In this document: one piece after another, positions 1 through 16,552 of the stretch | Numbering within the stretch: position 1 is the stretch's first letter | Layout: every line of letters starts with the position of its first letter | Assembly (NCBI RefSeq): GCF_009557235.1 | Contig: NZ_CP045650.1 | Span: forward strand, 720,001-752,000 | Origin: Acinetobacter wanghuae | GTDB lineage: Bacteria > Pseudomonadota > Gammaproteobacteria > Pseudomonadales > Moraxellaceae | Length of the DNA: 32,000 nucleotides | Direction of reading: 5' to 3' | Made by a program: the position numbers and the translations under genes | The notes under the pieces: generated by a model | Seen by the model: the letters and a program-made list of their open reading frames with translations, nothing else | What the model was told of the DNA's origin: nothing | Databases searched by the model: none

Positions 1-7
1 GGGGGCA

Positions 8-553: not shown

Positions 554-563
554 GAGAAATAAG

Positions 564-2534
564 ATGACAAATCTGAATAATGATAGATGGTTCTATTTAG
601 ATAAAAAACATGAAACTTTAGGTAATTTTAATTCACAACAATTATTAGAGTTATATCAAAGAAAAATTCTTACAAATCGCAGTTATGTTTGGAAAGAAGG
701 TTTTGAAGACTGGAAAAGATTTAAAGATGTACGCCCATCAATTCAGAATCAAGAATTAAAGATTATAGAACAACAGGTTCAAATTGAATCAGTAACTAAA
801 GAAAGTGATTTAAATAGTTCTAAATTAAGCAATTCTAAAATTGTGGAAAAGCAAGAATTAAATAATATCGATTATACAGCTCCATATCGCGTGAATTGGA
901 TATCTGAAAATCATAAACAGAATGTAACAAGTTTGACACAGCAAATCGCTGAAAGTTTAGCTTTACAAAAGAGGTTAGAAAGTTTTCGATTATCACCAAA
1001 TAAACCAGATGGGTTGATTATAGGTACTGGTGAAGCTGACTTTACCAAGGATAACGTTCCTTATGAGTTTACTTATCAAAATAAAACATTCCAGTTGATT
1101 GATGTTCCTGGTATTGAAGGAAATGAAGGACGGTATGAGCAGTTTGTAAAAGAAGCAGTAGAAAAAGCTCATTTAGTAATTTATGTAAACGGGACTAATA
1201 AGAAGCCTGAAGAACTTACTGCTCGTAAAATCAAAAGTTATCTGAATCAATATGCAAAAATATATGCAGTTTGTAATTTGCGTGGTAAAGCCGATAAATA
1301 TGATTCAGAAATAGATGAACTAGTTTCATTAAAACATAGCCATAAAGAAATGGATGATGTTTACAATCAGACTTTAATTGTATTAAATCAAGCTGTAGGA
1401 GCCGATTTGATAGACGGAGGTACGTGTGTTCAGGGCTTAATGGCATTCTCTTCATTAGCTTACGATCAGAGTGAAGAAGAAACTACAATTTCATCTAGTC
1501 GTAAAGATTTAATTGCAACACAAAAGTCATTTATGCGTGACTTTCCTTCATTAGAAAAAATGAAAGAATTTAGTCAAATAGATGAGTTAGAGCAAAAAAT
1601 AATTTCAAAATTTTCTACGTTTGAAGAGGATATTATTGAAAGTAATAAAAATAAAATCGTTAGAAAAATAGAACAAATTAAAGCTGTTATTCAAGAACAA
1701 CTAAACGATCATCTGAAATTGCAAACAAAGATTAAGAAGGAGCTTGACGTTGGTCGAGATTCAATTAATCGAGCTTTAAACGATTTTGAAAGTAAGTTAT
1801 CGAATAAATCTAATAATGCAGTGAGTTCGGCTTTTATTAATATTGCAGATGAAGGATGTTTGATAATTGAAAAATACTTTGGTAACCAAGAACAAATATC
1901 TTCAAATATTGAAGATATAGTAGATTATGCAACTCACAATCTTTTCAAAGAATTAGAGAAAATTAAGACAGAAGAAAGTCAGTATTTTCAAGATAATCTA
2001 CAAGAGATAATACAGAGAATTGGGCGAAGTATTGAACAAGTTCAAATTAATAGTGAATTGGAATATTCTCAAGATCAAGATTTATCAATAAAGTTTTCAA
2101 GTGCATCCACGTTTGATGTAAAAACCATAGGAAAAGGCTTAATTGAAATTGGTAGCATGGCGGCATTAGGTGCAAGTATTGGAACAGTATTCCCCGTAAT
2201 AGGAAATATAGTTGGTGGACTACTAGGTGGATTGCTTGGATTAATTAAAGCCGGCCTAGATTTCTTTCGTAGTGAAAAATCAAAAATTAATAAAGCACAA
2301 AGTAAATTTAGGGGAAATGTTGAAAATGAACAATCGGGATTTAAATCCAAGTTGCGAGATACACTGAGTGAAACGACAAGTTCCGTTAGAGATTATGTGG
2401 ATGTCAACATTATTAAAAAAATCTACATTGAATATGAAAAAATGTGTGATATTGAACGTATTTTGAATGAACAAATAAATAAACTATCGAATTTAAGTAA
2501 TCAAATTAAGGGGAAGGGTTATGGAACAATTTAA
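564..2534 (+). CDS. GYF_2-domain fusion to the P-loop-less remainder of a dynamin-like GTPase (LeoB-like)
   Basis: An SD site (AGGAG) precedes ATG 564. The N-terminus DRWFYLDKKHETLGNFNSQQLLELYQRKILTNRSYVWKEGFEDWKRFKDV looks like a GYF_2/DUF4339 module. The G3 motif DVPG is at nt 1101-1112, preceded by a switch-I-like GTGEADFTKD, but there is no GxxxxGK[ST]. A long helical stalk follows. A glycine-rich hydrophobic paddle GSMAALGASIGTVFPVIGNIVGGLLGGLLGLIKAGL sits near the C-terminus. Confidence 0.6.
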   Translation: MTNLNNDRWFYLDKKHETLGNFNSQQLLELYQRKILTNRSYVWKEGFEDWKRFKDVRPSIQNQELKIIEQQVQIESVTKESDLNSSKLSNSKIVEKQELNNIDYTAPYRVNWISENHKQNVTSLTQQIAESLALQKRLESFRLSPNKPDGLIIGTGEADFTKDNVPYEFTYQNKTFQLIDVPGIEGNEGRYEQFVKEAVEKAHLVIYVNGTNKKPEELTARKIKSYLNQYAKIYAVCNLRGKADKYDSEIDELVSLKHSHKEMDDVYNQTLIVLNQAVGADLIDGGTCVQGLMAFSSLAYDQSEEETTISSSRKDLIATQKSFMRDFPSLEKMKEFSQIDELEQKIISKFSTFEEDIIESNKNKIVRKIEQIKAVIQEQLNDHLKLQTKIKKELDVGRDSINRALNDFESKLSNKSNNAVSSAFINIADEGCLIIEKYFGNQEQISSNIEDIVDYATHNLFKELEKIKTEESQYFQDNLQEIIQRIGRSIEQVQINSELEYSQDQDLSIKFSSASTFDVKTIGKGLIEIGSMAALGASIGTVFPVIGNIVGGLLGGLLGLIKAGLDFFRSEKSKINKAQSKFRGNVENEQSGFKSKLRDTLSETTSSVRDYVDVNIIKKIYIEYEKMCDIERILNEQINKLSNLSNQIKGKGYGTI

Positions 2535-4266
2535 ACAATACAATATCCAAAAAGATGATGTGATCTATCAACTTAGCCAGTTAAAAAAATTAGTAGAGCA
2601 GCTAGAGGATGTTGGAATTGATTCAACTGATGTATTAAATAAAATTGAAAACTCTATATCTAGCGTAAGGGATGATACGCTTAGAATTGCATTGCTAGGT
2701 GCATTTTCTGATGGAAAAACGAGTGTAATTGCAGGTTGGCTGGGCCATGTGATGGATGACATGAAGATCGACAGTGATGAGTCTTCTAATGAGTTAGCAA
2801 TTTATAAACCAAATCATTTACCTGAAAAATGTGAAATTGTTGATACGCCAGGATTGTTTGGTGATAAGCAACAATTAGATGGGAACGGAAATCTAATTCA
2901 ATATAGTGATATCACACGAAAGTATATTTCCGAAGCTCATCTAATTTTTTATGTAGTTGATGCGGTGAATCCTCTAAAAGAGAGTCATAAAGATACTGTT
3001 AAATGGGTCTTGAGAGATCTAAATAAATTATCCTCCACTGTATTTGTGATCAATAAAATGGATGAGGTTGCAGATTTGAGAGATGAAGATGAATTTGCTC
3101 ATCATGCTGCTATCAAAAAAGATAATCTACTAGAAAAATTGAAACGTTTTGTTGATCTTACTGCTGCTGAATGTGAAGCAATAAATATTGTGTGTTTGGC
3201 ATCAAATCCAAATGGGCGAGGTTTAGATTTTTGGCTTGAAAAAAGAGATGTTTATGAAAAACGTTCAAGAATAGGTAATCTAAAAAAATTAACTAATCAG
3301 ATTCTTACTAATAATACTAAGAAAGATTTAATTAATAAGACAGGAATAGATGTTGTTAAGGATATATTAGTACAAAATTTAACAATGGCACAATCACAAT
3401 ATTCCTCTATCGATGCGTATATAAGTAATACATATCAAGAAATTCAAGTAATAACAAATGATTTAGCTAAGGCTAGAAGAGCTTTTATAGATGCCAAGTT
3501 TGATTTGGTCACAGACTTACAATTGAGTGAAAAAAGTTTATTGGGAGCTATTTATGTATTAACACCTGAAGATTTAAAAATCTTTGTTGATGGGGAAATT
3601 GGTTATTCAAATAATGATGTGGGCTATAAACTTAGACAGAATATTGAATTAGTTTGCCAAAAACATTTTAATTACGCTGCTGGTATTCTTCAGGATTTGA
3701 CTATTAAGGTTGAGCATCAGTTATATCAATCTGAACAATACGCAAACTCATTATCTAAAGCTGCTTTTAGCTCTTCTAGCTTTGCATTAAAGCAACTCGG
3801 TAAAATGCCTGTAAATACTATTAAAACAACTGTTTTTACTGCCCGGGATCTTCTCAGTAGTATGACTGGTTTATCTTTGAAATTTAAACCTTGGGGAGCA
3901 GTAAATTTAGCTACCAATATTGGAAAATGGGCTGGGCCAATTGGAATAGGTATTTCAATATTTTCACAAATTCATGAGCAATATCAAAAACAGAAAGTTG
4001 AACAAGAGTTCAATGAAGCTAAAAACCAAATTAACTCTCTAGTAATGGAACATTTTAAAACGGTATACGACTTGTTAAGTAATGATAAAGATGCAATTGC
4101 TAATTTTGCTCCTCAATTAGGTGTTTTTCAGCAACTTCTTGACCAACAAAAACAAGATCTTGAAGATTTACAGATACGTAAAGCCAAACTAATTAAGATC
4201 TCCGAAGATTTTAAGAAAATTGGTTCTAGTCAACTAATCTCAGCTCAGTTTGAAAAAGCAGTATGA
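2521..4266 (+). CDS. Bacterial dynamin-like protein (LeoA/BDLP-like large GTPase)
   Basis: It carries a complete GTPase motif set: G1 GAFSDGKT (nt 2698-2721), G3 DTPG (2842-2853) and G4 NKMD (3052-3063). A long helical stalk follows. A hydrophobic paddle-like segment WGAVNLATNIGKWAGPIGIGISIF is present. An SD site (GGGGAAGGG) precedes the ATG, and the ORF overlaps the upstream ORF by 14 nt. Confidence 0.78.
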   Translation: MEQFKQYNIQKDDVIYQLSQLKKLVEQLEDVGIDSTDVLNKIENSISSVRDDTLRIALLGAFSDGKTSVIAGWLGHVMDDMKIDSDESSNELAIYKPNHLPEKCEIVDTPGLFGDKQQLDGNGNLIQYSDITRKYISEAHLIFYVVDAVNPLKESHKDTVKWVLRDLNKLSSTVFVINKMDEVADLRDEDEFAHHAAIKKDNLLEKLKRFVDLTAAECEAINIVCLASNPNGRGLDFWLEKRDVYEKRSRIGNLKKLTNQILTNNTKKDLINKTGIDVVKDILVQNLTMAQSQYSSIDAYISNTYQEIQVITNDLAKARRAFIDAKFDLVTDLQLSEKSLLGAIYVLTPEDLKIFVDGEIGYSNNDVGYKLRQNIELVCQKHFNYAAGILQDLTIKVEHQLYQSEQYANSLSKAAFSSSSFALKQLGKMPVNTIKTTVFTARDLLSSMTGLSLKFKPWGAVNLATNIGKWAGPIGIGISIFSQIHEQYQKQKVEQEFNEAKNQINSLVMEHFKTVYDLLSNDKDAIANFAPQLGVFQQLLDQQKQDLEDLQIRKAKLIKISEDFKKIGSSQLISAQFEKAV

Positions 4267-4273
4267 GGTTGTG

Positions 4274-5743
4274 ATGTTATCAAACAAACTTTTTAAGCAG
4301 AATTTTTTTACGCTTTATTTCTCAGCTAAGGGGCGAATTAGCCGTAGTCTTTTTTGGAAGTCATTCTTTACAGGCTGTTGTGGAGTTATTGGTTTATTTT
4401 TTGTTTTGATAATACTGCAAGGGTTGGGAGTAATTAACGATGCTAGCCTTGGATTTTTAGGGTTAGGCTTATACATACTCGCATATTATGGATTATTTAT
4501 CTTAACCATTAAGCGATTACATGATTTTAATTTTTCAGGATGGTGGTCAATACCAGCATTAATTCTAATTGTTCCTTTAATTGCTATTGGTTTGACTAGA
4601 GAAAAGAAAGGTGAAAATAAATATGGTTATAATGCAATCGAATATGAAAATTCCAGATTGTCGATAAATAAGTCGAATGGCTTACCACCGCCACCACCAC
4701 CATTAGATAATCCTATAAGTAAAATTATTTTATCTTTAATCATGATATTACCTATTCCAAGCTTGGTCATAGCAGGTTTAACTAATACTTCTCAGATATC
4801 TACAAAAGAAGTGAATACAACAGAAAACGATTTACCATTTATATTAGAGCCGGGTGACATATATCAAAAAGTCGAAGCTACAGATGATGTAGAGGCTTAT
4901 TATATTGTGACTAAAGCGAATGGTATAATTGAGCATTATAGTTTAGATGGTGTATTACAGTGGTCTAATGCTGAAAGTGAAATAGACTTAGAGGAAGAAA
5001 AAATAAGTTTTGTTAAAAAACTCTATATAAAAGAAATTTCAGAGAATTCATATCATGTCATAGAGGAGAATTCCTCTTTAGAGTTACGTGAACTGTTCAA
5101 TCAGCGTGATGCTATCTCCGATAGAAATCAAGGAGAAATGTGTGATTGGGTTGGTCGTGTTTTAGTTCCTGGGAATGGAGATATAACTTTAAATATTAAT
5201 GATATTCATATTTCCTTATTAAGTAACGGTCTCGTTCGTGCCCTTTTTAAAGCTGATGATGAAAATATTATCAGAGATTTTGATATCCAATGTATTAACG
5301 GACAATGTAAAATTCATGATATTTATTACCCTAATAGCTATAAACAAGAGTTAAAGGAGATCGCAGAGAAAAATATCTGTACATCTTTGGACACTAATAA
5401 TGAAGCAAATAAAATAGTTACGGGTTCTGGATTAGGATATGAGTCAATTGTAGAAGGTTCAGGTAGGATGCCTACAGAGGATTCTATTGTAGTTGTACAT
5501 TACGAGGGTAAATTGATTGATGGCACAGTGTTTGATAGCTCATATCAACGTGGTCAATATATAGAATTCCCTCTTAATCAAGTTATTCCAGGGTGGACAG
5601 AAGGTCTTCAGTTAATGAAAGAAGGGGGTAAAGCTACTTTATATATTCCATCTCATTTAGCATATGGTAAACAAGGAGTACCAGGTACGATCCCACCAAA
5701 TAGCGAATTAACTTTCGAAGTAGAACTGATTGAAGTTAAATAA
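4274..5743 (+). CDS. Membrane protein fusing a DUF805-type N-terminal domain, a poly-Pro linker, an unknown domain and a C-terminal FKBP-type peptidyl-prolyl isomerase domain
   Basis: I prefer ATG 4274 (GAGG at 4265-4268, 5 nt spacing) over the ORF track's TTG at 4250. The N-terminus GRISRSLFW...IKRLHDFNFSGWW...GENKYG with about 4 TM helices is typical of DUF805. A PPPPPP linker and one more hydrophobic helix follow. The C-terminus GLGYESIVEGSG...VVVHYEGKLIDGTVFDSSYQRG...VIPGWTEGLQLMKEGGKATLYIPSHLAYG...IPPNSELTFEVELIEV is a textbook FKBP_C domain. Confidence 0.78.
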   Translation: MLSNKLFKQNFFTLYFSAKGRISRSLFWKSFFTGCCGVIGLFFVLIILQGLGVINDASLGFLGLGLYILAYYGLFILTIKRLHDFNFSGWWSIPALILIVPLIAIGLTREKKGENKYGYNAIEYENSRLSINKSNGLPPPPPPLDNPISKIILSLIMILPIPSLVIAGLTNTSQISTKEVNTTENDLPFILEPGDIYQKVEATDDVEAYYIVTKANGIIEHYSLDGVLQWSNAESEIDLEEEKISFVKKLYIKEISENSYHVIEENSSLELRELFNQRDAISDRNQGEMCDWVGRVLVPGNGDITLNINDIHISLLSNGLVRALFKADDENIIRDFDIQCINGQCKIHDIYYPNSYKQELKEIAEKNICTSLDTNNEANKIVTGSGLGYESIVEGSGRMPTEDSIVVVHYEGKLIDGTVFDSSYQRGQYIEFPLNQVIPGWTEGLQLMKEGGKATLYIPSHLAYGKQGVPGTIPPNSELTFEVELIEVK

Positions 5744-5815
5744 TACTTAAAGTTTATAATTAAATTGAACTTTAGATAATTATAGATTTTTTTATTTAGT
5801 AAAGTATTAAAGGGA

Positions 5816-5858
5816 ATATTATGGAATATTAATACTCCCTTTAATTTTAAAAATTTCG
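5816..5858 (+). terminator. Hairpin between convergent genes; candidate intrinsic terminator
   Basis: ATTAAAGGGA (5816-5825) pairs with TCCCTTTAAT (5846-5855). Internal AATATT/AATATT pairing is possible, and a short T run follows. The loop is long and the T tract weak. Confidence 0.35.
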
Positions 5859-6011
5859 AACGGTCTGCTATATCTTAAATCCTTCTAAACAGTATCCAGA
5901 AACTAATTGGATAATTCAGATTCAGCACTTTTTATTGAGTTTATTTTGCAGATGATTCTAGATGCAATTTTCAGTTGAGATGCTAGCCATCAAGCTAAGG
6001 TACAAGCTTTA

Positions 6012-6743
6012 CTAAATAGCTAATACAACCTGATACGGTTTAAACCCTGCTAATACAGCTTCGGAAACCAATTGAATAAAAGCATCAGTTTTGCCATAAG
6101 CCATCCATTGATCTAAAGCTTCATAGTAGGCCAAGCGATTTTCAACAGTGATAACACATGGTGGATAACCCGCTTTAAGTAATTCGAGATTCATTAATAG
6201 ACGTGATGTACGTCCATTGCCATCAATGAATGGATGGATACCTACAAAATCCGCATGTACTTTAGCAGCACGTTCTATAGGATGAAGCTTATGTGCTTCC
6301 GTGTTATACCAATTGATTAACTGGGCCATCTTGTCATTTAGCAGCGTATAGTCTGGTGGCGTAGTTGTAGCACCTGAAATTAAAACATTTTGTTGACGAT
6401 AGCGACCTGCATTTTCATCATCAATATTTTTTAGAATGAGTTGGTGAATATTTCGAATCTGCCATTCAGAGAAAGGTTCTTCTTTTCGAATAATATCTTC
6501 AACATAGTAGATAGCATTTCTATGGTTGACCGCCTCAAAATGTTCTCGTAATGCTTTGCCACCGACAGTGATACCTTCTAGGACAACTTTTGTTTCAAGT
6601 AAGGTAAGTGTATTGCCTTCGATCGCATTTGAGTGATATGTCCAACGTAGAATAAGGTCTTCTTGTAGATTTTTTACAATTGCAGGTGAAAGAGGGCGAT
6701 GCTGATCTAACTTTGTTTTCAAATCATCAATACTTTCAAACAT
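6012..6743 (-). CDS. Fic-domain protein (AMPylase family), class II with an N-terminal auto-inhibitory motif
   Basis: The Fic catalytic motif HPFIDGNGRTSR is encoded at 6201-6236 (minus strand). The inhibitory-helix motif (S/T)xxxE(G/N), here SNAIEG, is at 6615-6632 and lies N-terminal to the catalytic motif. Confidence 0.9.
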   Translation of the reverse strand: MFESIDDLKTKLDQHRPLSPAIVKNLQEDLILRWTYHSNAIEGNTLTLLETKVVLEGITVGGKALREHFEAVNHRNAIYYVEDIIRKEEPFSEWQIRNIHQLILKNIDDENAGRYRQQNVLISGATTTPPDYTLLNDKMAQLINWYNTEAHKLHPIERAAKVHADFVGIHPFIDGNGRTSRLLMNLELLKAGYPPCVITVENRLAYYEALDQWMAYGKTDAFIQLVSEAVLAGFKPYQVVLAI

Positions 6744-7092
6744 GATCTTATCCCTGAATGTGTTTTAATGAATGATACATGAAAAAGAAATATCAAAAAA
6801 TGTAATGATATAGCATCACATTATATTCTTGGGGGGAATGGTAAAATGAGTACAAAAGTTCTGATAATAAATAAGTAGCAGTTTTTAGATTCATGAATAT
6901 ACGAGCATATTCAAAGTTTTATTTGTGGCTTAAATCTACTGCGTATTGTGGGGCAAATTCTAGATCGTCTTTATAGAAGTACTGACATCTTTTGATCCTA
7001 TGATCATGCTTCAATGTAAACACGGCATATCAGTATTTTAAATTCCAATAACTTAAAAAAATTAGTATCTTATAGGAAAAATTACTTGTCTA

Positions 7093-10000
7093 ATGATACA
7101 TAAATCAGTTGTGAGTACTATGCTAAATAACGAAAATCAAACTCCAAAAAACAATGGCTTATTAACGATCTATCTATATGACTCTTATTTAAAAGGTTCA
7201 TTAACCAAGCTAGAAGTTTTTGGGGGGCATACCAATCTCACAGGACAAAATGGCGCAGGGAAAACCTCAGCACTCAATCTTATACCTGTATTTTATGGTG
7301 CTAGACCAGATCGGATGATGGATCGATCTGCCAATAAACTCAATTTTACTGATTATTATTTGCCACATGATCGTAGTTTGTTGATTTATGAGTATGCAAC
7401 ACCGCTGGGCATCAATTGTGCCGTGTTCTATCGCCATCCTACCCAAGAGCGACTCTGTACTCGATTTATCCAAGGCGCAGCAGAAAAGACTTTATTAACT
7501 CAAGAAAACCTTCAATTCCATGCGGAAAATAATAGTGCTAAGGAGCTATTTTCCCACTTGTATAAACAAGGGGTGAATGTCAGTCTGCAAATAGAACACA
7601 CCAAGGATTACAAAGCTGTTATTACCAATGAACGGTTTAGATTAAAAGCAAATCCGAAATTGCGAGAGTTGGCAGTACTCTTTTCCTTAGCTGGGCAAAA
7701 ATTGGAAATTAAACATGTCGGTGATTTAACGCAGATTACCTCAAATAAATTGAATCTCTTAGACAGCTTTAAACAGATGCTAATTGATCTATATTTAGAT
7801 AGTGAAAGATCTGTGACCAAATTTAAAATCAGTCATGATTTTGCTGAAGTGACGAATGAGCTGCGTGTTTTATATCGATTACAAAAAGAAAAGCCAAAGA
7901 TTCAAGCAGGGATTGAGCGTAGAACGGTACTTCTCAATACCTATGAAGAGTTGTCAGCATATCAATCACATGTGCAAACATGGAAAATAAACAATGAAGA
8001 TCAAATTCATCTTTTTGAAACAAACTTAGCTGACCTAAAGCAAAAGTTACAGCGTGATGTAGCTGAACTCAATCAGAAAATTGCTGTAAATAGTACTGAG
8101 CTTGCATCTATCGAAGGAAAATTAACGGCATCACAGGCACATTTAAAGCGGATTGTAGATACTGAAACATTTTATAAGCAAAATAATATTTTAAAAAAAC
8201 AACAGGAGTTTCATCATTTAGCGACTCATGAACAGAACATGCTGGATGCTAAAAACTATTTAAGTGAGCTCGAACAAAATTATCAGGATGTCAAAAATAA
8301 ATTCAGCCAATTAGAGCTGGAGATACTGAAGCAAAAAGACCGTGATGTTGGTCGTAACACAGAAACTTTAGAACAGCTCGCAAATGAAAAAGAACAGCTC
8401 AGCATCAAGCAAAAACAACGAATGGATGAGCTTTTACAAGCCAAACATGCTGAAGAGTTGGATTTTAATCAAAGTCACGAAAAACAACGTTCGGAGTTTG
8501 AGGCTAAAATTACCCGCTGTACAACTCGCATTGAAACTGTCATGCGTATGGAGGCAAATGAAGAACAAGAGGACAGTGCTTATCGCGTTGATATTGATTT
8601 AAAGAACATCAAAATTCAGAACAAAGACAAAGAAATTAAACAGTACTATCAAAATCAATCTGTTTTACGCGATGAGTATGAACATCTTCGCGAAGAACTG
8701 CGTTTAGAAAAACAGAGGTTGCAGCAACTCGAGGCTGAAAAAAAGTCCTTGATCGAATTGATTGAGTCGAATGACACTATTTTACATTTTTTAAATCAAA
8801 ACCCAGATGTAAATTGGCGTGAACATATTGCAAAAGTCATTCACCCTAAATTACTCGCACGTAAGGATTTAAGTCCGTATTGGGATTTAGAATTAGATGG
8901 CTTTGGTAGCTTCTATGGCCTCAACTTAGATCTTGATCAGTTATCTCTTCCGCAGGAAGCAGATTCTTTAGATATCCAAACAGCACGACTTGCTGAAGTA
9001 TCGCTAAATATAGATGAACTGCATAAAACAGTGCAAAGCTTGGAGATCGCATTTAATAAACTGCATAAAAAGCGTCATGATGCGGAATTGCATACCATCC
9101 AGTTCAATACTGAACTCAATGCTTTAAAATCAGAGCTTGAAAGTCTACATATTGAATATCAATCTTTTAAAGATCGTCTGCAATTGGCCATTCAGGAACG
9201 CAAACAGGTTGCAGAAGATTTTCTCAGAACAACGCAAAGACAATACGATGAATTCAAACGGACTGTTGAGCAAGAGCGCCAGGCAATTAATGTGAGGTTT
9301 TTGCAAGAACGACAACGGATTGAAGATGCCATTCAAGATGAAAAAAATATTTTAACTGAACAGCAAATCGCCTTAAAACAGCAAAATCTTAATATTCAAG
9401 AAGATTGCCAGCGTAAGCTGGAAGACTTGAGTGTCATGTATGAAAGTGAGCTGCAACAACGTGGTTTTGATGTGCAAGTACAACGCAATGCGAAGCAAAG
9501 ATTTGAACAGCTGCGGGATGAATATGAACGTATTAAAAACTATCGCGATGAATTACAGAAATATGCACAGTGGTTAGAAAATGAATATCGATTAAAAGAC
9601 TATTTGTCAGAGCAAATCAGCGCTTATGAAAAAGAGCTGTATCGAGTTAATTTACAAAAACAAAAATTAAAAGATAAATTAGAGTCTGTGAATCAATTGG
9701 CTCAACATGATAGTCAGAAGATCAGTGCAACCATTCGGAGCGTTGAAGCCGAAAATAAAAAACTGACGGCACTTGCTTCCATGCTCGATCAATTATTTGG
9801 CGATGTAGAGGCCATTGAGATCAATACAACTGTTGATGTTGCCAAACCAGTTAACTTTGAGATGCTGTGTCGTTATACCGAGGATTTAATCTCACGTCGA
9901 GCACAACAATACAAAGAACTCAAACAGTCGGTATATGTGATCATGTCGATCATTCGCCAAGATACGGATCTTGAATTGTATAAATTATGGAAGAGCCGTA

Positions 10001-10869
10001 TTGACCGTTATGGTGCTTTAACAGGTGTTGCCTATGATTTACAGAGTATGTTTGAAATTGAAGAAATGCTCTATCACGATATCCCAAGCCGAGAGGCCTT
10101 GATTCGTGCGCAATTCTGTCTAAAAGCCTACAGCTTACGTGATTATGCTGAAGCAGTCTTAAGCTTCAATGCGAAACTGAATAAAGTCTCAAAGGATTTA
10201 AATTATAAAACAAACTCGACCAACCCATTCCCAGCGCTCACTGAAATTGAAACGAAATTGGTATCGGTACTTGATGGATTGGATGTGTATGAACAGTTAA
10301 AGAGCTATGTCCGAGAGTTGCAAGAATCCAATTTAGAAGATTCGACTTTATTGCCTTCAGAACGACTTATTGAGTCTTATGAGCGTACATACACCGCATT
10401 AGAAAGTGCCAAAGTGGATACTAATGATATTCAAACATTAGTCCGTCTACGTATTGGTTATAAGGAAAACGGGCGTACTGTTGTAGTCAATAATGATTCG
10501 GATTTGGCACAGGGCAGTAGTACTGGTTTATCTCGGCTCATCATTATCATCATCTTTACTGCTTTAACTCGTGATATGTGCCCTGATCTTAATACTGCGA
10601 TTCACATGCCTTTAGATGAAATTGGTCAATTTGATACACAAAATACCACGCGCTTATTCCAATTGATGCAGGATCAAAATATACATTTGATTTGTGCGCA
10701 ACCGGGACTCACAGCCGAGCTGAGTAAGCGATTCAAACATAAGCATGATATTGATCGTAATTTCGGTATCCGTAGATTTGTGGTACAGAAAAGTCTGTTA
10801 GCCAATCCCTTATTGGCACATGAAAGCACGCAAAATAATGAGCCAACTCCAGTTGCTGAGGTTGAATGA
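7093..10869 (+). CDS. SMC/MukB/JetC-like ABC-type ATPase (head - coiled coil - hinge - coiled coil - head), 1258 aa
   Basis: Walker A GQNGAGKTS is at 7243-7269. Very long E/K/Q/L-rich helical arms are interrupted at the protein midpoint by a Pro/Gly-containing non-helical segment (about 8790-8975: NPDVNWREH...SPYWDLELDGFGSFYGLNLDLDQLSLPQEAD). The C-terminal signature-like GSSTG is at 10513-10527. A hydrophobic strand LIIIIIF and the Walker B sequence PLDE (10609-10620) complete the head. Confidence 0.82.
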   Translation: MIHKSVVSTMLNNENQTPKNNGLLTIYLYDSYLKGSLTKLEVFGGHTNLTGQNGAGKTSALNLIPVFYGARPDRMMDRSANKLNFTDYYLPHDRSLLIYEYATPLGINCAVFYRHPTQERLCTRFIQGAAEKTLLTQENLQFHAENNSAKELFSHLYKQGVNVSLQIEHTKDYKAVITNERFRLKANPKLRELAVLFSLAGQKLEIKHVGDLTQITSNKLNLLDSFKQMLIDLYLDSERSVTKFKISHDFAEVTNELRVLYRLQKEKPKIQAGIERRTVLLNTYEELSAYQSHVQTWKINNEDQIHLFETNLADLKQKLQRDVAELNQKIAVNSTELASIEGKLTASQAHLKRIVDTETFYKQNNILKKQQEFHHLATHEQNMLDAKNYLSELEQNYQDVKNKFSQLELEILKQKDRDVGRNTETLEQLANEKEQLSIKQKQRMDELLQAKHAEELDFNQSHEKQRSEFEAKITRCTTRIETVMRMEANEEQEDSAYRVDIDLKNIKIQNKDKEIKQYYQNQSVLRDEYEHLREELRLEKQRLQQLEAEKKSLIELIESNDTILHFLNQNPDVNWREHIAKVIHPKLLARKDLSPYWDLELDGFGSFYGLNLDLDQLSLPQEADSLDIQTARLAEVSLNIDELHKTVQSLEIAFNKLHKKRHDAELHTIQFNTELNALKSELESLHIEYQSFKDRLQLAIQERKQVAEDFLRTTQRQYDEFKRTVEQERQAINVRFLQERQRIEDAIQDEKNILTEQQIALKQQNLNIQEDCQRKLEDLSVMYESELQQRGFDVQVQRNAKQRFEQLRDEYERIKNYRDELQKYAQWLENEYRLKDYLSEQISAYEKELYRVNLQKQKLKDKLESVNQLAQHDSQKISATIRSVEAENKKLTALASMLDQLFGDVEAIEINTTVDVAKPVNFEMLCRYTEDLISRRAQQYKELKQSVYVIMSIIRQDTDLELYKLWKSRIDRYGALTGVAYDLQSMFEIEEMLYHDIPSREALIRAQFCLKAYSLRDYAEAVLSFNAKLNKVSKDLNYKTNSTNPFPALTEIETKLVSVLDGLDVYEQLKSYVRELQESNLEDSTLLPSERLIESYERTYTALESAKVDTNDIQTLVRLRIGYKENGRTVVVNNDSDLAQGSSTGLSRLIIIIIFTALTRDMCPDLNTAIHMPLDEIGQFDTQNTTRLFQLMQDQNIHLICAQPGLTAELSKRFKHKHDIDRNFGIRRFVVQKSLLANPLLAHESTQNNEPTPVAEVE

Positions 10870-11504
10870 TGATTCCACACCATTTAAAAAGTCAGATCCT
10901 GAACGCGCTATTGGCAGGGCGTATTATTAGTGAGTATACGGACAAAGAGTTTTTTGCAATTTTAAGACAAGTACATGCCTTAGAAGAAATCAATACTGCC
11001 TTGGCCATGCTAGATAAACGTTGTGTCATGAGTACGCAAAATTCAGCCTACTACTGTGTGTATACACGAGAAAATTTAACGAAAGAAGAAGCAGAGATTG
11101 TACGTAAGCAATTTGAAGAAAGTAAATTTAGATTAGAGTTCGTAAGTGCTTGGGCTGAGTTTTGTCGCAGTGAGTTAAGTAAAAATAGTTTGCCAATTCA
11201 AAGTGGCGATATTATTTCTTATACCGATTTATTACGTGTAACTGATGAATCGAGTATTGCTAAAGCCAAGCTGGCGGATTTAATTAAACGTATTAAACGA
11301 AATACCACCACGATTAAAGATCAACTCAGTTCTGTTTTACAATATTTAGTCGATCATGAATATTTAGTGCCGACGGGAAATAATGGTGTTGCTTATCTAG
11401 CGACAGGTAAGTGGTCAGTTCTTTACGATGAGCTTGAGTTTATGTGCTCACATCATCAGCTCTCTTTTGACACACCAGAGCCTGAGCAGGGTGAATTGCT
11501 GTGA
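10866..11504 (+). CDS. Hypothetical protein, 212 aa; second gene of the SMC-like operon (KITE/MksE-sized; no recognisable motif)
   Basis: The start overlaps the upstream stop as ATGA (10866-10869), and the stop overlaps the next start as GTGA. The ORF is same-strand and tightly coupled. Any functional assignment rests only on size and position. Confidence 0.6.
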   Translation: MMIPHHLKSQILNALLAGRIISEYTDKEFFAILRQVHALEEINTALAMLDKRCVMSTQNSAYYCVYTRENLTKEEAEIVRKQFEESKFRLEFVSAWAEFCRSELSKNSLPIQSGDIISYTDLLRVTDESSIAKAKLADLIKRIKRNTTTIKDQLSSVLQYLVDHEYLVPTGNNGVAYLATGKWSVLYDELEFMCSHHQLSFDTPEPEQGELL

Positions 11505-12733
11505 CAGACTTAATCAATTATGCAGAGAAACCAGCAAGAGTCTTATTAAACTACATTGAGCAGATTAGTGAGGCGGTCTATTTTCATAATTCTGGCTTTG
11601 TCATTGATGAAAATAATAAAGTAATGCTGGATGCACTCAATAATGCTGAATTGGGCTATTACAACACTGAGAACAACAGTTTCCAGTTGCACAACATCAT
11701 TATCAATTTTGTCAGCTTTTATAAAAAAAGAAAAATTATCAATAATGCCAAAATGATCAATCAAATTTTGGATGAGATTAAACATGCGACCTATGATTTG
11801 GTACAGGCTAAAATAGAAACACCTGAGAGTGTCGACTTGCTTAAACAAGAAATCATCGATTTGGTCATTTCACTGTCAAATGCCATCCATGAAAGCTCTT
11901 ACAACTTTGCAATTTTAGCAATGCGCGATTTAACTTTATTTAATAACCTAAAGTTACGCATCAAGCGGATTACACGTCATATCGCAGTGGTCAATGAGCT
12001 ATTGTCCGTGCATGGGGTTTTATCGCATAGTGAAATGATTAAACTGGCTGTGGGAGATAAAGACTTAGAGCATTCGATTCGGCACTATCTCATGCCAGTA
12101 TTTCGTCAGAGTAAAATTGATCTGATTGATAGTCTTGGAAAACTTGAAAAGCAACTTTTTGAATGGAAGCAAGAAGAGGTCTATCAACGACAAAACAATA
12201 TGATAGATGCTTGGCTGAAATACTGTCAGCAACATGCATCTATCCGCGATGATGTAGATATTTATGACCTACCAGATAGCTTTTATCGTATTCCGCGTAA
12301 AGATTTGGTTTGCCGAGCTGATTTAAATCAGCTCACGGATGACTTAGTCGAGATCAGTACTGGAGTAATGAAGAAAGCATTGCAGGATCAGCAAATACTT
12401 GAGCAAAAGGCTGAGCAAGTCCTAGAGACGGTCATTACGAAAGAAGAGATTATGACTCAACAAGAATCACCGCTTGAAATTGCACTGAATCATTTCTTTG
12501 AAGCACTTATGCCAGCTCAGACAGGTGGGTATCAAACTTTGGATGCAAGGTCGACTTTTGAAAAATTATCACCAGACTGTGAGTTAGATTATTGGGTCAG
12601 TAGTTTGGTGTCCTGCTGTCGTAATGATTATCCACAAGACTTAAAGATCGAATTTATCGAAGAGATTGATCCAGTATTTACTGGTAATAGTCAGGTCACC
12701 AATGTGGTCATTTCTAGAGTGGAACGCTCATGA
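11501..12733 (+). CDS. Hypothetical protein, 410 aa; third gene of the SMC-like operon (kleisin-sized; no recognisable motif)
   Basis: The GTG start at 11501 overlaps the upstream TGA, and its own TGA overlaps the next ATG (12730-12733). The sequence looks mostly helical, with no catalytic motif seen. Confidence 0.6.
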   Translation: MTDLINYAEKPARVLLNYIEQISEAVYFHNSGFVIDENNKVMLDALNNAELGYYNTENNSFQLHNIIINFVSFYKKRKIINNAKMINQILDEIKHATYDLVQAKIETPESVDLLKQEIIDLVISLSNAIHESSYNFAILAMRDLTLFNNLKLRIKRITRHIAVVNELLSVHGVLSHSEMIKLAVGDKDLEHSIRHYLMPVFRQSKIDLIDSLGKLEKQLFEWKQEEVYQRQNNMIDAWLKYCQQHASIRDDVDIYDLPDSFYRIPRKDLVCRADLNQLTDDLVEISTGVMKKALQDQQILEQKAEQVLETVITKEEIMTQQESPLEIALNHFFEALMPAQTGGYQTLDARSTFEKLSPDCELDYWVSSLVSCCRNDYPQDLKIEFIEEIDPVFTGNSQVTNVVISRVERS

Positions 12734-13590
12734 TGAATGGTAAACAGTTAAATGTAATTAAACATGCCATTCAGTCTAAAAAGAAAGTGGTAGAACTGAA
12801 CCAGACATGGCTCATGCTCAATCAGGACTTTCAAGTGGGTGTTAAACAGGGACGAGAGTTGCTCTTAAGTCATCGTGATTATGAGATGCTCACAGCAATT
12901 TATCAGCGTCATATCAAAGTTGCACCATCAGTGAATATCACACTTCAGCAAGATCGTATGACCTTGGTGGATTATTTGAAAGATGAAAAAGTTGGTGGAT
13001 TTAACGTATTTGCAGATCAATTGGTCTTTGCATCGGTATCAACTGATTTACCATTAAAAACAGGTAAGGCGACGATTGCTTTTGCGGGGATGTTAGCGAC
13101 TACACAGATTGAAAACCTTGATATACCGGCAATACAGCGCATCATTATTATTGAGAATGGTGCCATGATGAGTCGGGTATTTGATTGGTATATGCAGTTA
13201 CCTATTGAATGGCAGTCGAGCCTGTTTGTTTATCGTGGGCATGGCAGCAACATTAAAACGGTAGTCAAATTACTAAAACAAGTATCGATGAGTTGCTTGG
13301 TAGCTTTTTATGGTGATTTTGATCCTTATGGGATTAATATTGCCTCTCATTTTTATAAAATCCGCCCTTTAGCACTGATCGTACCGTATATTTGGAAGGA
13401 AATTAGAGCAACTCACATCGATAACAATATACATAAATACATGAAGCAGATTGTTCAGAGTCGTGATCTCGCCGTTGATCAAGAAGAACCTATAGTTTTA
13501 AGAGAGCTATTTCATCACATTAAAACGAACCAAATTGCGATTATGCAGGAGAATGTAAATCGAATAGGACGTTTGATGGTTCTGTATTAA
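12730..13590 (+). CDS. Compact Toprim-domain protein, JetD/MksG C-terminal (DUF2220)-like; putative nuclease subunit
   Basis: The Toprim acidic residues occur in the JetD-type arrangement: RIIIIENGAMM (E at 13153-13155), then SLFVYRGHGSN, then AFYGDFDPYGINI (DxD within 13312-13332). The protein is only 286 aa, with about 135 aa N-terminal to the Toprim core. Confidence 0.7.
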   Translation: MMNGKQLNVIKHAIQSKKKVVELNQTWLMLNQDFQVGVKQGRELLLSHRDYEMLTAIYQRHIKVAPSVNITLQQDRMTLVDYLKDEKVGGFNVFADQLVFASVSTDLPLKTGKATIAFAGMLATTQIENLDIPAIQRIIIIENGAMMSRVFDWYMQLPIEWQSSLFVYRGHGSNIKTVVKLLKQVSMSCLVAFYGDFDPYGINIASHFYKIRPLALIVPYIWKEIRATHIDNNIHKYMKQIVQSRDLAVDQEEPIVLRELFHHIKTNQIAIMQENVNRIGRLMVLY

Positions 13591-13854
13591 TCCTATTTCT
13601 GGATAGGGCTATGGCTGCTTTAGCTTGAACAGATGACAATTTCAATACAACATCTTTGGCTCATAGGCATGCTGGGGTATCGTAGTTTATGTTACAATAT
13701 CCGCATATAAATATGTTTTGTTACATATAAAAAGAAGAAAAGTTCCCGAGTTCAATTTCCTTTTCCGCAGGGATGTCCTTGTACACAGTATGTACAATCT
13801 ATTTTTTCCAAACAAATAAAAGTTAATAAAAACATTGTTTTATATTTGAGTTAG

Positions 13855-13873
13855 CCGGACGCCATCTCCACCA
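13855..13873 (+). other. tmRNA/tRNA 3'-acceptor-end-like fragment (CCGGACGCCATCTCCACCA); candidate distal att site of the island
   Basis: The fragment ends in a discriminator A plus CCA. The implied acceptor strand CATCTCC would pair with 5' GGGGAUG through a G3:U70 pair (tRNA-Ala/tmRNA identity). No D, anticodon or T arm lies upstream, where the sequence is about 80% AT, so this is a fragment and not a gene. Confidence 0.4.
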
Positions 13874-13893
13874 AAATTCTTGTTACAAATCAG

Positions 13894-13917
13894 CCACTAA
13901 TATTAAGTGGTTTTTTT
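13894..13917 (+). terminator. Weak intrinsic terminator just downstream of the RNA-end-like fragment
   Basis: CCACT (13894-13898) pairs with AGTGG (13906-13910), followed by TTTTTTT (13911-13917). The stem is short. Confidence 0.35.
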
Positions 13918-14066
13918 ATTGCCAAATTTTCTTCCAAGAATGTTCAATCTCAAGCAATTGAGATTGAACTCCTCATGCTTTATTTAGAAATCTTCAATTT
14001 CTCTAATTTTTATTTGAAATAATATTTAATAGTCTTTAAGGGATTCACAAAAAACAATAATCTTGG

Positions 14067-14372
14067 ATGAGCAAAAAGCTTAAGCATCTCTTAATACAGC
14101 TTTTCCATTTTGCAGAGGAACAGTACAAGATCAGTTCTGATCAAGCTCGGCATAAAGAGGTTGTTAGATAAATTTGGGGCATAAAATCACATGATCTGCT
14201 TCAGCATGCAGTTAAATATACAAAAAGGTGTATGACCTCTTTTTATCGTGACTATGTGTATTGCCTAAGATTACGAAAATTGTCTAAAACAAAACGTATG
14301 GACTTTAGTCTATTCTTAAATGAGATAGAGTATGAAGTTCTGATTCGAAATCAGGGATTTTCTTATAGGTAA
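14067..14372 (+). pseudogene. About 100-codon reading frame interrupted by a single in-frame TAA (14169-14171); possible decayed small gene
   Basis: ATG 14067 gives MSKKLKHLLIQLFHFAEEQYKISSDQARHKEVVR, then TAA. The same frame continues as IWGIKSHDLLQHAVKYTKRCMTSFYRDYVYCLRLRKLSKTKRMDFSLFLNEIEYEVLIRNQGFSYR and stops at 14370-14372. A 66-codon open stretch is unusual in DNA this AT-rich. I recognise no homology. Confidence 0.25.
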
Positions 14373-14466
14373 TACGTCTAAATTAATCAATAAAACTTCA
14401 TAATAAAACCTAGTGCAGAAGAATTGCTGAGCTAGGGAGAATGTATTTTAATCTTGCTGATGTTTT

Positions 14467-15372
14467 TTAAGATTCTGAAAACAGCTCGAAAAAAATACGT
14501 CTTAACCATTCCACATTTGAATTATTGTGTGAGCGAGAATGCCAATATTGTTTCACGCTATAACTTGGGAATGTATAGGGTGGTTTAAAGATTTTAATAT
14601 CACCCCGTGATTCAAGAAATTCACTTAAATAACGCGGTACAGTGGCAATGGCATCGGTGGTTTTAATAATTGGACCGACCCCTAAATAACCGGGTAGCTG
14701 CATCAAAATATTGCGACTCACACCTAATTTTTGTAATTCATTTCTCACAATGTAATGCCCGCCAGTGCCCATAATATCAATATGAAGTTCACGGCAATAA
14801 TCTTCTTGGGTCAGCATTTCATGATTCAGCCTTGGATGGAATGGACTGCAAATCACGGTATATTCTTGTTTGAAAAGCGTTTGTTGATAAAACCCTGCTT
14901 CAATTTGAGGAATAAATCCAATCGCAAGATCAATTTTCCCTTCAGCCATTTTCGTAGGTGTATCCGCATCAATTGGCACAATACTTAAACGAATATTGGG
15001 AGCATTTTCTCGTAAATAATTAACCAATTGGGGGAGCAGCACCAAGTGACTAATATCGGTCATGCTGATCTTAAATTCGTAATTTGATGTTGTAGGATCA
15101 AAATCGACATTGTATTGATTAATCAGTTTTAGATGATTTAAGCATTCTACCGTAATAGGATAAATCGCTTTGGCAAGATCGGTCGGTTCCATATTATTAC
15201 CGACACGAACAAATAATGGATTATTAAAATGTTCACGTAATTTATTTAAGCCAATACTTAATGTGGATTGTCCCGTGCCTAATGAAGCTGCTGCCTTTGA
15301 GACACTTTTATGGCGGTAAATCTCATAAAAAATTTGTATAAGTCGTGAATCAATATCCATCTGCGTCATCAT
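14467..15372 (-). CDS. LysR-family transcriptional regulator (MhbR/NagR-like), divergent from the gentisate operon
   Basis: The N-terminal HTH is LIQIFYEIYRHKSVSKAAASLGTGQSTLSIGLNKLREHF. The length of about 300 aa and the divergent arrangement are typical of LysR-type regulators. Confidence 0.9.
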   Translation of the reverse strand: MMTQMDIDSRLIQIFYEIYRHKSVSKAAASLGTGQSTLSIGLNKLREHFNNPLFVRVGNNMEPTDLAKAIYPITVECLNHLKLINQYNVDFDPTTSNYEFKISMTDISHLVLLPQLVNYLRENAPNIRLSIVPIDADTPTKMAEGKIDLAIGFIPQIEAGFYQQTLFKQEYTVICSPFHPRLNHEMLTQEDYCRELHIDIMGTGGHYIVRNELQKLGVSRNILMQLPGYLGVGPIIKTTDAIATVPRYLSEFLESRGDIKIFKPPYTFPSYSVKQYWHSRSHNNSNVEWLRRIFFELFSES

Positions 15373-15377
15373 ACTGT

Positions 15378-15417
15378 ATTGATTTTATCAATATAGCCTA
15401 TTCATTTCGGGCTATAT
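15378..15417. promoter_or_regulatory. Candidate LysR operator dyads in the divergent promoter region
   Basis: ATTGATTTTATCAAT (15378-15392) is a perfect palindrome. ATATAGCC-N11-GGCTATAT (15391-15417) is an interrupted dyad of the T-N11-A type. Confidence 0.4.
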
Positions 15418-15514
15418 ATACAAGGTTTTGCTGTTGATAAATTGAGCCAAATGAAGGGTGGACGAGCAATTTTTAGCTAAAAATTGCTTTTACAAAACTG
15501 GAAGAGGCTGAAAG

Positions 15515-16552
15515 ATGGAACAACTTGCAACATTAGAAGATTTACCGAAAGAGTATGTGTCAACTCTGACGCAATCAAATCTTGTCCCGCTTTGGCCGAG
15601 TCTACGTAATGTATTACCGCCGAATCAGCCCATCCCGCAAACACAAGCAACAGCTTGGCATTTTAAAGATATTAAGCCGCTTTTATTACAAGCAGGCGAA
15701 TTAACACCAATTGAAAAAGCTGAACGTCGTGTATTGGTACTGGCGAATCCCGGTCATGGTTTAGAAAACATGAAGGCAACATCGTCTATTTATTTGGGTA
15801 TGCAATTGCTACTACCGAATGAATGGGCACCTTCACATCGTCATACACCAAATGCAGTTCGCTTAATTGTTGAAGGCACAGGGGCATATACCACAGTTGA
15901 AGGTCAAAAATGCACGATGGAGCATGGTGATTTGATCTTAACGCCATCAGGCTTATGGCATGAACATGGTCATGATGGCGATGAACCTGTGATCTGGCTC
16001 GATGTTCTCGATTTACCTTTGGTTTACTACATGGAAGCATCGTTCGTTGAAGGCGGAGATGTCCAAGAAGTCAAAGGAACGGATCGTGGTCATCGCTATG
16101 CTAAGGGCATCGTTCCGACTGTGCATTTTGTGCGTGAAAACTCAGGTTATCCACTGCTTCGTTACTCTTGGAAAGATGCAAAACAAGTATTGGATGCTTT
16201 AGCCGCTGATGCCGCGCACCAAGGTCCTGCACAAATTAGCTATGTGAATCCTGAAACAGGTGAAGACTGCCAAAAAATTATTGGTTATTCAGCGATTCGT
16301 TTAGCGCCGAAAGAAGTGGTTCAATTGGAACGTCGTTCAGCCGCGCAAGTTTTTCATGTCATTGAAGGTCAGATGCACATCGACATCAATGCAAATACCT
16401 ATGAATTATCACGTTCTGATACCGCATGTGCACCTTGTTTTGCACAAATTGATTTAATCAATAATGGTGATGAACCCGCTTATATTTTTGTTGCTGATGA
16501 AGCGCCTTTACAGAAGAAGTTAGGGCTTTATTCAACACGTGCACGTATCTAA
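15515..16552 (+). CDS. Gentisate 1,2-dioxygenase (bicupin)
   Basis: The protein is 345 aa, with the cupin metal motif WAPSHRHTPNAVRLIVEG...WHEHGH. The operon context also includes an FAD hydroxylase, a GST-zeta isomerase and an FAH hydrolase. Confidence 0.85.
   Translation: MEQLATLEDLPKEYVSTLTQSNLVPLWPSLRNVLPPNQPIPQTQATAWHFKDIKPLLLQAGELTPIEKAERRVLVLANPGHGLENMKATSSIYLGMQLLLPNEWAPSHRHTPNAVRLIVEGTGAYTTVEGQKCTMEHGDLILTPSGLWHEHGHDGDEPVIWLDVLDLPLVYYMEASFVEGGDVQEVKGTDRGHRYAKGIVPTVHFVRENSGYPLLRYSWKDAKQVLDALAADAAHQGPAQISYVNPETGEDCQKIIGYSAIRLAPKEVVQLERRSAAQVFHVIEGQMHIDINANTYELSRSDTACAPCFAQIDLINNGDEPAYIFVADEAPLQKKLGLYSTRARI

Follow-up and report, generated by a model that had tools for sequence, protein, structure and literature searches.

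A probable Wadjet-group SMC operon with B-E-F-G gene order and a short Toprim nuclease in Acinetobacter wanghuae

Mechanistic knowledge of Wadjet, a group of anti-plasmid nuclease systems built around an SMC (structural maintenance of chromosomes) protein, comes from types I and II. In type I, the nuclease JetD docks on the 'larynx' of JetC via a large arm-CAP domain. Type II cleaves circular DNA like type I, and the mechanism therefore seems general across types. Wadjet operons have been catalogued with subunit assignments by Bürmann et al. (Cell 2025, PMC7617805, Data S1), who used six rounds of profile searches and operon inference. Here, we describe a four-gene operon located in a stretch of 32,000 nucleotides of Acinetobacter wanghuae DNA (contig NZ_CP045650.1, positions 720,001 to 752,000; hereafter the window, in whose coordinates all positions are given). 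The operon is predicted to code for an SMC-type ATPase (MksB, JetC-like), a KITE subunit (MksE, JetB-like), a kleisin (MksF, JetA-like) and a short Toprim nuclease (MksG, JetD-like), in the order B-E-F-G.

Very probably, this locus encodes a complete and intact SMC-kleisin-KITE-Toprim complex of the Wadjet group. The following features of the group were found together in the window: an SMC ATPase, a KITE protein, a protein of kleisin architecture and a TopoVI-A/Spo11-like Toprim protein, all in one co-directional operon, and a MksB whose tree position, obtained indirectly, falls inside the group. As to its physiological role, we lean, with more reserve, towards restriction of circular extrachromosomal DNA, by analogy with the characterised types. 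Our confidence in the joint statement, that the operon encodes a Wadjet-group SMC nuclease of the BEFG clade which would restrict circular DNA, is good; it blends the strong confidence placed in the identity of the complex with the smaller one placed in its role. The locus is an orthologue of catalogued operons and is not new in kind; it belongs to a branch that is rare and experimentally uncharacterised. A preliminary description of the locus had proposed either a divergent, permuted Wadjet subtype or a distinct SMC-plus-Toprim system. The parts list and the orthology to catalogued BEFG operons speak for the first proposal and against the second.

Relatives of the operon and position of MksB in the published tree

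Among the Wadjet-group operon clusters of Data S1 (at least 817), 11 show the order BEFG and one the order BEF; the other orders among the rows listed are FEB, FEBG and GFEB. MksG is thus kept in 11 of the 12 BEF(G) clusters, the Ruminobacter one being devoid of it. Catalogued examples are found in Acinetobacter indicus pB18-1 (QIC71742-QIC71745), Acinetobacter sp. CIP 64.2 and Psychrobacter arcticus 273-4. For the A. indicus plasmid CP044456.1, Data S1 gives MksB at 100873-104592, MksE at 104603-105256, MksF at 105253-106503 and MksG at 106516-107379, and these are the coding sequence (CDS) coordinates of the plasmid match found in our own searches (H2/L009).

The window proteins align with those of pB18-1 over essentially their full length, with identities of 38.8% for MksB (tblastn, 97% of length), 39% for MksE, 34% for MksF and 41% for MksG. 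Window and catalogued BEFG operons also have subunit sizes in common (about 1240, 210, 415 and 285 amino acids (aa)). The closest relatives of the window operon are 66-83% identical to it. By these comparisons, the window operon is assigned to the BEFG clade as a separate sub-lineage. The possibility that such an order and size class had already been catalogued was raised in the preliminary description, and this is the case in the supplementary table; in the main text of PMC7617805, the clade is neither named, discussed nor tested, and PADLOC models do not cover it. Furthermore, nothing on the BEFG clade was found in the literature on DUF7281 and on Wadjet in Acinetobacter, and no published plasmid-restriction test of any clade member was found.

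Metagenomic loci at 28-38% identity contain these four genes too, with gene order and sizes unchanged. The module is also present in Marinobacterium lutimaris and on plasmids or chromids of Marinobacter, Vibrio, Aromatoleum, Rhodoferax, Pseudomonas and Acinetobacter. Twelve more metagenome loci, anchored on gene 4 alone, carry it as well. When hidden Markov models (HMMs) built from our own alignments were applied, B, E, F and G were contiguous and co-directional at all loci of sufficient length.

The position of MksB was read from the Newick file of the published head-plus-hinge phylogeny, in which the window protein is placed indirectly, through its 38.8% identity to QIC71742.1, a member of that tree. 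Inside the Wadjet group, the MksB proteins of the twelve BEF(G) clusters come together as a single clade, with a bootstrap support of 100%. This clade is joined first by a Lactobacillales FEBG clade (support 88), then by a Chloroploca/Desulfosediminicola clade (88), a Bacteroidota clade (42) and a clade that includes E. coli MukB and P. aeruginosa MksB (76). Within the region of the tree file that holds these clades, type III (B. thuringiensis YBT-020) is placed further out; C. glutamicum MksB and P. aeruginosa JetC (type I) and N. vireti (type II) are found elsewhere in the file.

The four predicted subunits

The four open reading frames (ORFs) had been described as lying on the same strand and joined by 4-nt start/stop overlaps. 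ORF listing and junction sequence confirmed both points (ATGA at 10866-10869, GTGA at 11501-11504 and ATGA at 12730-12733), and the genes are, by their arrangement, predicted to be co-transcribed and translationally coupled. A consensus scan of the 349 bp upstream of mksB found no convincing plus-strand promoter. The coordinates of the operon, its motifs and the flanking features are collected in Table 1.

Gene 1 matched Pfam DUF3584 over nearly the whole profile (E 1.6e-129, residues 28-1220 on profile positions 2-1189 of 1191). This agrees with the SMC architecture proposed for it earlier, and its motifs lie exactly at the positions given then. In ten MksB homologues (18-41% identity), G51, N53, G56, K57, T58, S1142, S1143, G1145, D1175 and E1176 are invariant. 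Because the residues are invariant across homologues, the motifs of MksB, like those of MksG, are considered functional and not chance strings. Analysis of the proline and glycine content showed that residues ~211-555 and ~631-900 are nearly free of these residues and that a block containing them, ~556-630, lies in between, which fits the hinge-like midpoint previously put at about 8790-8975. In PADLOC, the window MksB matched JetC2 with E 0.0025 (13.7 bits, coiled-coil level) and LmuB with E 0.068, the latter in the coiled-coil region; among MksB relatives, JetC and LmuB matches were about equally weak, and AriA was comparable. A phmmer search of gene 1 against PDB sequences gave no match. 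The start of mksB is in doubt by about 10-26 codons, since its homologues are shorter (1217-1254 aa) and the Pfam match begins at residue 28; the true start may be the ATG at 7120 (M10) or lie further downstream. The Shine-Dalgarno sequence of the annotated ATG (7093) is poorly placed.

The preliminary description saw no recognisable motif in the two middle proteins; this did not hold once their families and a structural model were examined. Gene 2 itself matched Pfam MksE with an E value of 0.019, which falls short of the curated cut-off. In its family, made up of 14 homologues from related loci, Pfam MksE was matched by 11 members (best 1e-12) and DUF4194, the JetB family, by 7, and precomputed Pfam MksE annotations are present on the gene-2 homologues of loci L001 and L016. 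Comparison of the family with E. coli MukE by hhalign gave a collinear alignment over 161 columns, which was weak (E 0.002, probability 13%). The PADLOC model JetB1 matched three of the 14 family members (best 1.7e-5) and no PADLOC model matched the window protein; searching the PDB with the family profile returned coiled-coil or helical noise only. On the strength of the family profiles, gene 2 is assigned to the KITE subunits of the MksE/JetB family. The family ends in a conserved acidic tail (...PEPEQGELL, window 11460-11501), in which Q208 is kept in at least 90% of the 14 homologues. This tail may be a partner-binding peptide.

The AlphaFold2 model of gene 3 (mean predicted local distance difference test (pLDDT) 87.5) displays a kleisin layout of the MukF/JetA type. 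When this model was compared with the PDB by Foldseek, MukF chains made up 8 of the top 31 matches (E 0.03-0.2, 225-325 aligned columns). An exhaustive profile search of 1.84 billion proteins found 80 clusters of the gene-3 family at 50% identity, all of about 400-430 aa and matched end to end. The named members come from Acinetobacter (including A. baumannii and A. baylyi), Psychrobacter, Vibrio, Shewanella and Pseudoalteromonas, and further from Pseudaeromonas, Psychrosphaera and Paralysiella. The PADLOC JetA model matched none of 52 family members, and the family profile gave only coiled-coil or helical noise against the PDB. Taken together, architecture and gene position make it well supported, though not proven by the homology tests used here, that gene 3 is a kleisin. 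Its MksF label rests on the modelled architecture, the gene position and the 34% identity to the MksF of pB18-1, an assignment that Bürmann et al. made with iterative profiles (PMC7617805).

Gene 4 was recognised by several Pfam families (DUF7281 4e-33, JetD_C 2e-5, DUF2399 6e-5), and its best PADLOC match was JetD3 (E 6e-7, 27 bits). A phmmer search of gene 4 against PDB sequences gave no match; the profile of its family found the Toprim domain of Spo11 (4e-6). With the AlphaFold2 model (pLDDT 80.9), the best PDB match in Foldseek was P. aeruginosa JetD (7TIL_B, E 2.6e-3, probability 1.00), and the Toprim domains of type II topoisomerases ranked after it. The Toprim glutamate and DxD motif pointed out earlier are exact in position, and E142, N143, D196, D198, P199 and G201 are invariant in 15 homologues. 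Residues 1-95 contain no tyrosine that is invariant in these 15 proteins; there is thus no sign of a topoisomerase-style covalent mechanism, as in JetD. An exact match of gene 4 is A3K93_02855, on the chromosome of Acinetobacter sp. NCu2D-2.

The small size of the Toprim protein had been presented as an oddity. It is indeed shorter than the JetD proteins of types I-III (357-418 aa); however, in the neighbouring tree clades MksG measures 234-332 aa by the coordinates of Data S1, and a short MksG is usual there, which accounts for its length in the window. Residues 63-100 (window 12916-13029) combine a pLDDT below 50 at 63-93 with a conserved R76, an invariant E86 and K87, and VFADQLVF at 93-100. 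This stretch may be a linear docking motif in place of the arm-CAP interface of type I JetD. MksG may be docked through its 63-93 segment or through the conserved acidic C-terminal tail of MksE (...EQGxL).

Part of the subunit evidence could be accommodated by an SMC-like defence system distinct from Wadjet, which would detect phage DNA, for instance its ends or its replication intermediates (cf. Lamassu and Gabija/OLD-type systems), and would use a Toprim effector. The weak JetC matches, with LmuB and AriA comparable for the ATPase family, the lack of JetA matches in the gene-3 family and the anti-phage neighbours LeoABC and Fic all fit such a system. However, the operon includes a strictly syntenic KITE gene and a protein of kleisin layout, both of which are missing from Lamassu, Gabija and PARIS; its Toprim is of the TopoVI-A/Spo11/JetD type and not of the OLD type, and its orthologues lie inside the Wadjet group in the head-plus-hinge phylogeny. 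We therefore regard this alternative as very improbable.

Table 1. Features of the Mks operon and of its surroundings in the window
Feature	Position in window	Strand	Residues	Remarks
Four-ORF operon	7093-13590	+		ORF listing; intact
Gene 1, mksB/jetC-like SMC ATPase	7093-10869	+	1258 aa
Gene 2, mksE/jetB-like KITE subunit	10866-11504	+	212 aa
Gene 3, mksF/jetA-like kleisin	11501-12733	+	410 aa	GTG start; kleisin by predicted layout
Gene 4, mksG/jetD-like Toprim nuclease	12730-13590	+	286 aa
MksB layout			arm ~211-555, hinge ~556-630, arm ~631-900+	N-head, arm, hinge, arm, C-head
MksB Walker A/P-loop, GQNGAGKTS	7243-7269	+	51-59	includes K57
MksB hinge-like non-coiled segment	8758-8982	+	~556-630	conserved W575, L593, P595, G609
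MksB ABC signature motif, GSSTG	10513-10527	+	1141-1145
MksB Walker B and catalytic Glu, IHMPLDE	10609-10620 (PLDE)	+	1170-1176 (PLDE 1173-1176)
MksF predicted domains			9-63, 65-244, 245-280, 280-305, 324-406	N-terminal winged helix, helical bundle, disordered linker, helix, C-terminal winged helix
MksG domains			4-61, 63-93, 98-285	small N-terminal winged-helix-like domain, conserved low-confidence segment, Toprim
MksG Toprim acidic motif, IIIIENG	13141-13161	+	138-144	E142
MksG Toprim DxD motif, YGDFDPYG	13309-13332	+	194-201	D196, D198
Upstream intergenic region, 349 bp	6744-7092	+		presumed operon promoter region; no ORF
Terminator-like hairpin followed by T run	13892-13912	+		about 300 nt 3' of mksG; consensus scan
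LeoC-LeoB-LeoA operon	8-4266	+		complete dynamin-like GTPase defence system; PADLOC E 4e-54, 4e-171, 4e-237
DUF805-FKBP protein	4250-5743	+	497 aa	TTG start; overlaps leoA end by 17 nt
Fic/DOC-family gene	6012-6743	-		PADLOC PDC-S04 5e-39, SoFic 6e-34

Proposed mechanism, cellular role and genomic carriers

If the operon works as a Wadjet system, two MksB chains would dimerise at the hinge, and their heads would be bridged by MksF through its N- and C-terminal winged-helix domains. The N-terminal domain of MksF, with the helical bundle, would pair two such motors, and MksE dimers would sit on MksF and clamp the DNA. Once loaded on DNA, the complex would carry out ATP-driven loop extrusion. On a small circle, extrusion would run to completion, and the stalled pair of motors would then present a bent DNA segment. 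This segment would be kinked and cleaved by an MksG dimer at its Toprim site (E142, D196, D198). In this way, plasmids would be destroyed and the chromosome spared.

The defence and mobile context of the window operon and of its relatives (LeoABC, Fic, Tn7-like/BrxR, RES toxin, methyltransferase, HicAB) supports a role in defence, with complications that are given below. In the window, the operon is chromosomal and lies in an island with Leo and Fic genes. The adjoining defence operon reported earlier was identified by PADLOC as LeoC/LeoB/LeoA, and the Fic/SoFic-like gene is located on the minus strand, between this operon and the Mks operon. On the 3' side, the Mks operon is followed by a LysR regulator and catabolic genes. 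The island had also been called AT-rich. This is true of the Leo operon (GC content 0.312), which is the truly AT-rich part; it holds weakly for the four mks genes, whose GC content is uniform at 0.376-0.379, against 0.403 in the right flank. No Rfam match was obtained within 5700-15600 and ARAGORN found no tRNA anywhere in the window, so that the boundary of the island was not identified.

Within the Leo region, LeoB has an N-terminal GYF_2 domain. In the protein encoded at 4250-5743, which matches no PADLOC model, a DUF805 membrane domain at the N terminus is connected by a proline-rich linker to an FKBP-type prolyl isomerase at the C terminus. Given its coupling to leoA, this gene may be a fourth member of the Leo operon.

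Outside the window, the surroundings of BEFG operons vary. In a metagenomic locus (L016, JGI metagenome 3300054975, 1-13533), BEFG stands directly downstream of Tn7-like genes (AAA_22/TnsC-like, TniQ, TnsD), and after it come a BrxR-type WYL regulator and a DUF5677 protein; the operon looks like cargo of a Tn7-like element, alongside other defence-like genes. Other neighbours are a RES toxin with helicases, a DNA methyltransferase, and HicAB. At loci L002 and L003, the operon lies among housekeeping genes. No gene 4 homologue was found in phage GenBank records or in IMG/VR viral contigs.

Most full-length plasmid-borne copies are carried by replicons of 107 kb to 1.17 Mb. Self-immunity by size, with all carrier plasmids above 100 kb, was considered and rejected, as the 40-kb pACI-b25a has a full operon. 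On this circular plasmid of Acinetobacter sp. ACNIH1 (L015, NZ_CP026423.1, 40,249 bp), an apparently intact BEFG was observed at 1073-7449 beside ISAba12. On the conjugative plasmid pLA16-1 of Vibrio campbellii (L012, NZ_CP021147.1, 109,793 bp; 5989-12431), mksB is broken into two CDSs and so is mksF, and mksE and mksG are intact. These splits, by frameshift or pseudogene formation, may reflect inactivation on a replicon near the size limit of type I Wadjet. A 222-aa stub of the MksB N-terminal head, truncated by IS630 and 38% identical to residues 36-238 of the window MksB, lies among msrA/msrB genes on IncHI2-type plasmids of 266-338 kb, namely a Citrobacter IncHI2A plasmid (L014, NZ_CP069802.1, 6953-7618) and six similar Enterobacteriaceae plasmids listed (H19-H25); it is a remnant and not a system.

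The split genes of pLA16-1 and the stubs on IncHI2 plasmids raise the idea that the window operon, too, might be a defunct remnant and a passenger of its genomic island. However, none of its four ORFs is truncated, their starts and stops are coupled, all catalytic motifs are intact, and the GC content is uniform over the four genes. That the window operon is such a remnant is extremely improbable.

Several points weigh against a circular-DNA nuclease of the Wadjet group. First, the mechanism of the BEFG clade is carried over wholly by homology from types I and II. MksG is devoid of the long arm-CAP domain that type I JetD uses to dock on JetC, and its coupling to the motor must therefore differ from type I. 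Second, the kleisin showed no significant sequence or structure match to JetA, MksF or MukF models. Gene 3 gave no Pfam, NCBIfam, PADLOC or PDB sequence match, alone or across its family; no individual Foldseek match against the PDB was significant, the best one to MukF having an E value of 0.03; and the hhalign comparison of the family with E. coli MukF was not significant (probability 0.4%). Third, an intact operon on the 40-kb pACI-b25a is awkward if circles below about 50-100 kb are cut, as by types I and II. Fourth, the BEFG clade is closer in the published tree to MukBEF and P. aeruginosa Mks, both of them chromosome organisers, than it is to Wadjet type I. Finally, Price et al. (bioRxiv 10.1101/072470) reported that DUF3584 proteins of three Shewanella species are specifically important for cisplatin resistance and motility, with co-fitness between the DUF3584 gene and two adjacent hypothetical genes (Sama_0592-0594). 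These genes are only possible members of BEFG; by the names of cluster members, some Shewanella have the gene-3 family, S. amazonensis not being among those named.

The Shewanella phenotypes would be expected if the complex were mainly a condensin for chromosome maintenance or DNA-damage tolerance (MksBEF-like), loading on the host chromosome and aiding repair or segregation. MksG would then be an accessory or processing nuclease, and plasmid restriction would be absent or secondary; this view is not strictly exclusive of the restriction role. It also draws on the common super-group of the BEFG clade with E. coli MukB and P. aeruginosa MksB, on the fact that gene-2 relatives are best matched by Pfam MksE, a P. 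aeruginosa-type model, on the Ruminobacter clade member without MksG, on the operons among housekeeping genes at L002 and L003, and on the intact operon of the 40-kb plasmid. However, the Shewanella genes are only candidate BEFG members, their consecutive locus tags fitting either B-E-F or F-E-B order, and MksG was found with intact catalytic residues in 11 of the 12 catalogued clusters and at every locus examined. In addition, the distribution of the operon is patchy and often linked to plasmids, Tn7-like elements or defence islands, a pattern characteristic of defence genes rather than of the core machinery of the chromosome, and the gene-3 family is small (its 80 clusters). On balance, we judge a predominantly chromosomal function to be unlikely.

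A different target rule or cellular role could also apply to the BEFG clade as a MukBEF-proximal SMC nuclease, which would then be more than a shuffled Wadjet, with its minimal MksG docking through a new interface. The complex might act on damaged or stalled chromosomal DNA, and the cisplatin and motility phenotypes linked to DUF3584 in Shewanella would then be accounted for. Otherwise, its size limit might be far lower, or it might respond to something other than size, and either would account for the intact copy on a 40-kb plasmid. We hold this reading, too, to be doubtful, and restriction of circular extrachromosomal DNA by a Wadjet-group complex is retained as the preferred explanation.

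Significance and comparison with described systems

The BEFG clade is distinct in several respects. No other clade has the order B-E-F-G; its nuclease is reduced to about 286 aa, its position in the published tree is beside MukBEF and P. aeruginosa Mks, and none of the sequence-profile searches tried (Pfam, PADLOC, PDB) picks up its kleisin. Since PADLOC misses the kleisin and matches the other subunits weakly, anti-plasmid immunity is probably underestimated in surveys of the genomes and large plasmids of Acinetobacter, Vibrio, Psychrobacter and Shewanella, a point of relevance to plasmid-borne resistance in Acinetobacter. Should the cisplatin phenotype of Shewanella belong to BEFG, the clade would offer a tractable link between chromosome-organising condensins and defence nucleases. 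Its minimal nuclease, cryptic kleisin, proximity to MukBEF, possible link with DNA damage and poor coverage by PADLOC make it worth characterising.

With Wadjet type I (JetABCD/MksBEFG/EptABCD; E. coli GF4-3, P. aeruginosa, C. glutamicum), the window operon has in common the same four-subunit logic of an SMC protein, a kleisin, a KITE protein and a TopoVI-A/Spo11-like Toprim protein, the kleisin with N- and C-terminal winged helices and the nuclease with E and DxD motifs. However, type I genes are ordered F-E-B-G (jetA-B-C-D), whereas the window order is B-E-F-G (C-B-A-D), and type I MksB is in a different part of the published tree. In addition, type I JetD has about 380-400 aa and an arm-CAP domain, whereas the 286-aa window MksG has only an N-terminal domain of ~60 aa.

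Types II (Neobacillus vireti) and III (B. thuringiensis YBT-020) show the order G-F-E-B and a JetD of 357-418 aa, and both are placed in tree clades separate from BEFG. Type II is further characterised by a tandem KITE. The best PADLOC match of window gene 4 is to the JetD model of type III. The definition of types I-III by Doron 2018/PADLOC does not describe the window operon. When each protein was run against the models, only JetD3 (6e-7) and, weakly, JetC2 (0.0025) were obtained in PADLOC, genes 2 and 3 remaining unmatched and the order being different; in Pfam, DUF3584, DUF7281, JetD_C and DUF2399 were found. Judging from these HMM results with PADLOC-DB v2, PADLOC would not call the locus Wadjet.

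The window operon does not correspond to Lamassu either. Lamassu combines the SMC-like LmuB with LmuC and a variable effector and has neither a kleisin/KITE pair nor a TopoVI-type Toprim, whereas the window operon has a KITE gene and a protein of kleisin layout.

MukBEF and the P. aeruginosa-type MksBEF(G) belong to the same tree super-group as BEFG (support 76), and among solved protein families, MukF is the one that the gene 3 model resembles most. The window operon nevertheless departs from a MukBEF condensin. MukBEF has no nuclease, the order F-E-B and a MukB of about 1486 aa, whereas the window operon has a coupled Toprim gene, the order B-E-F-G and an MksB of 1258 aa. Moreover, MukBEF is a core chromosome-segregation machine, whereas the BEFG operon is patchy in its distribution and often carried by mobile elements.

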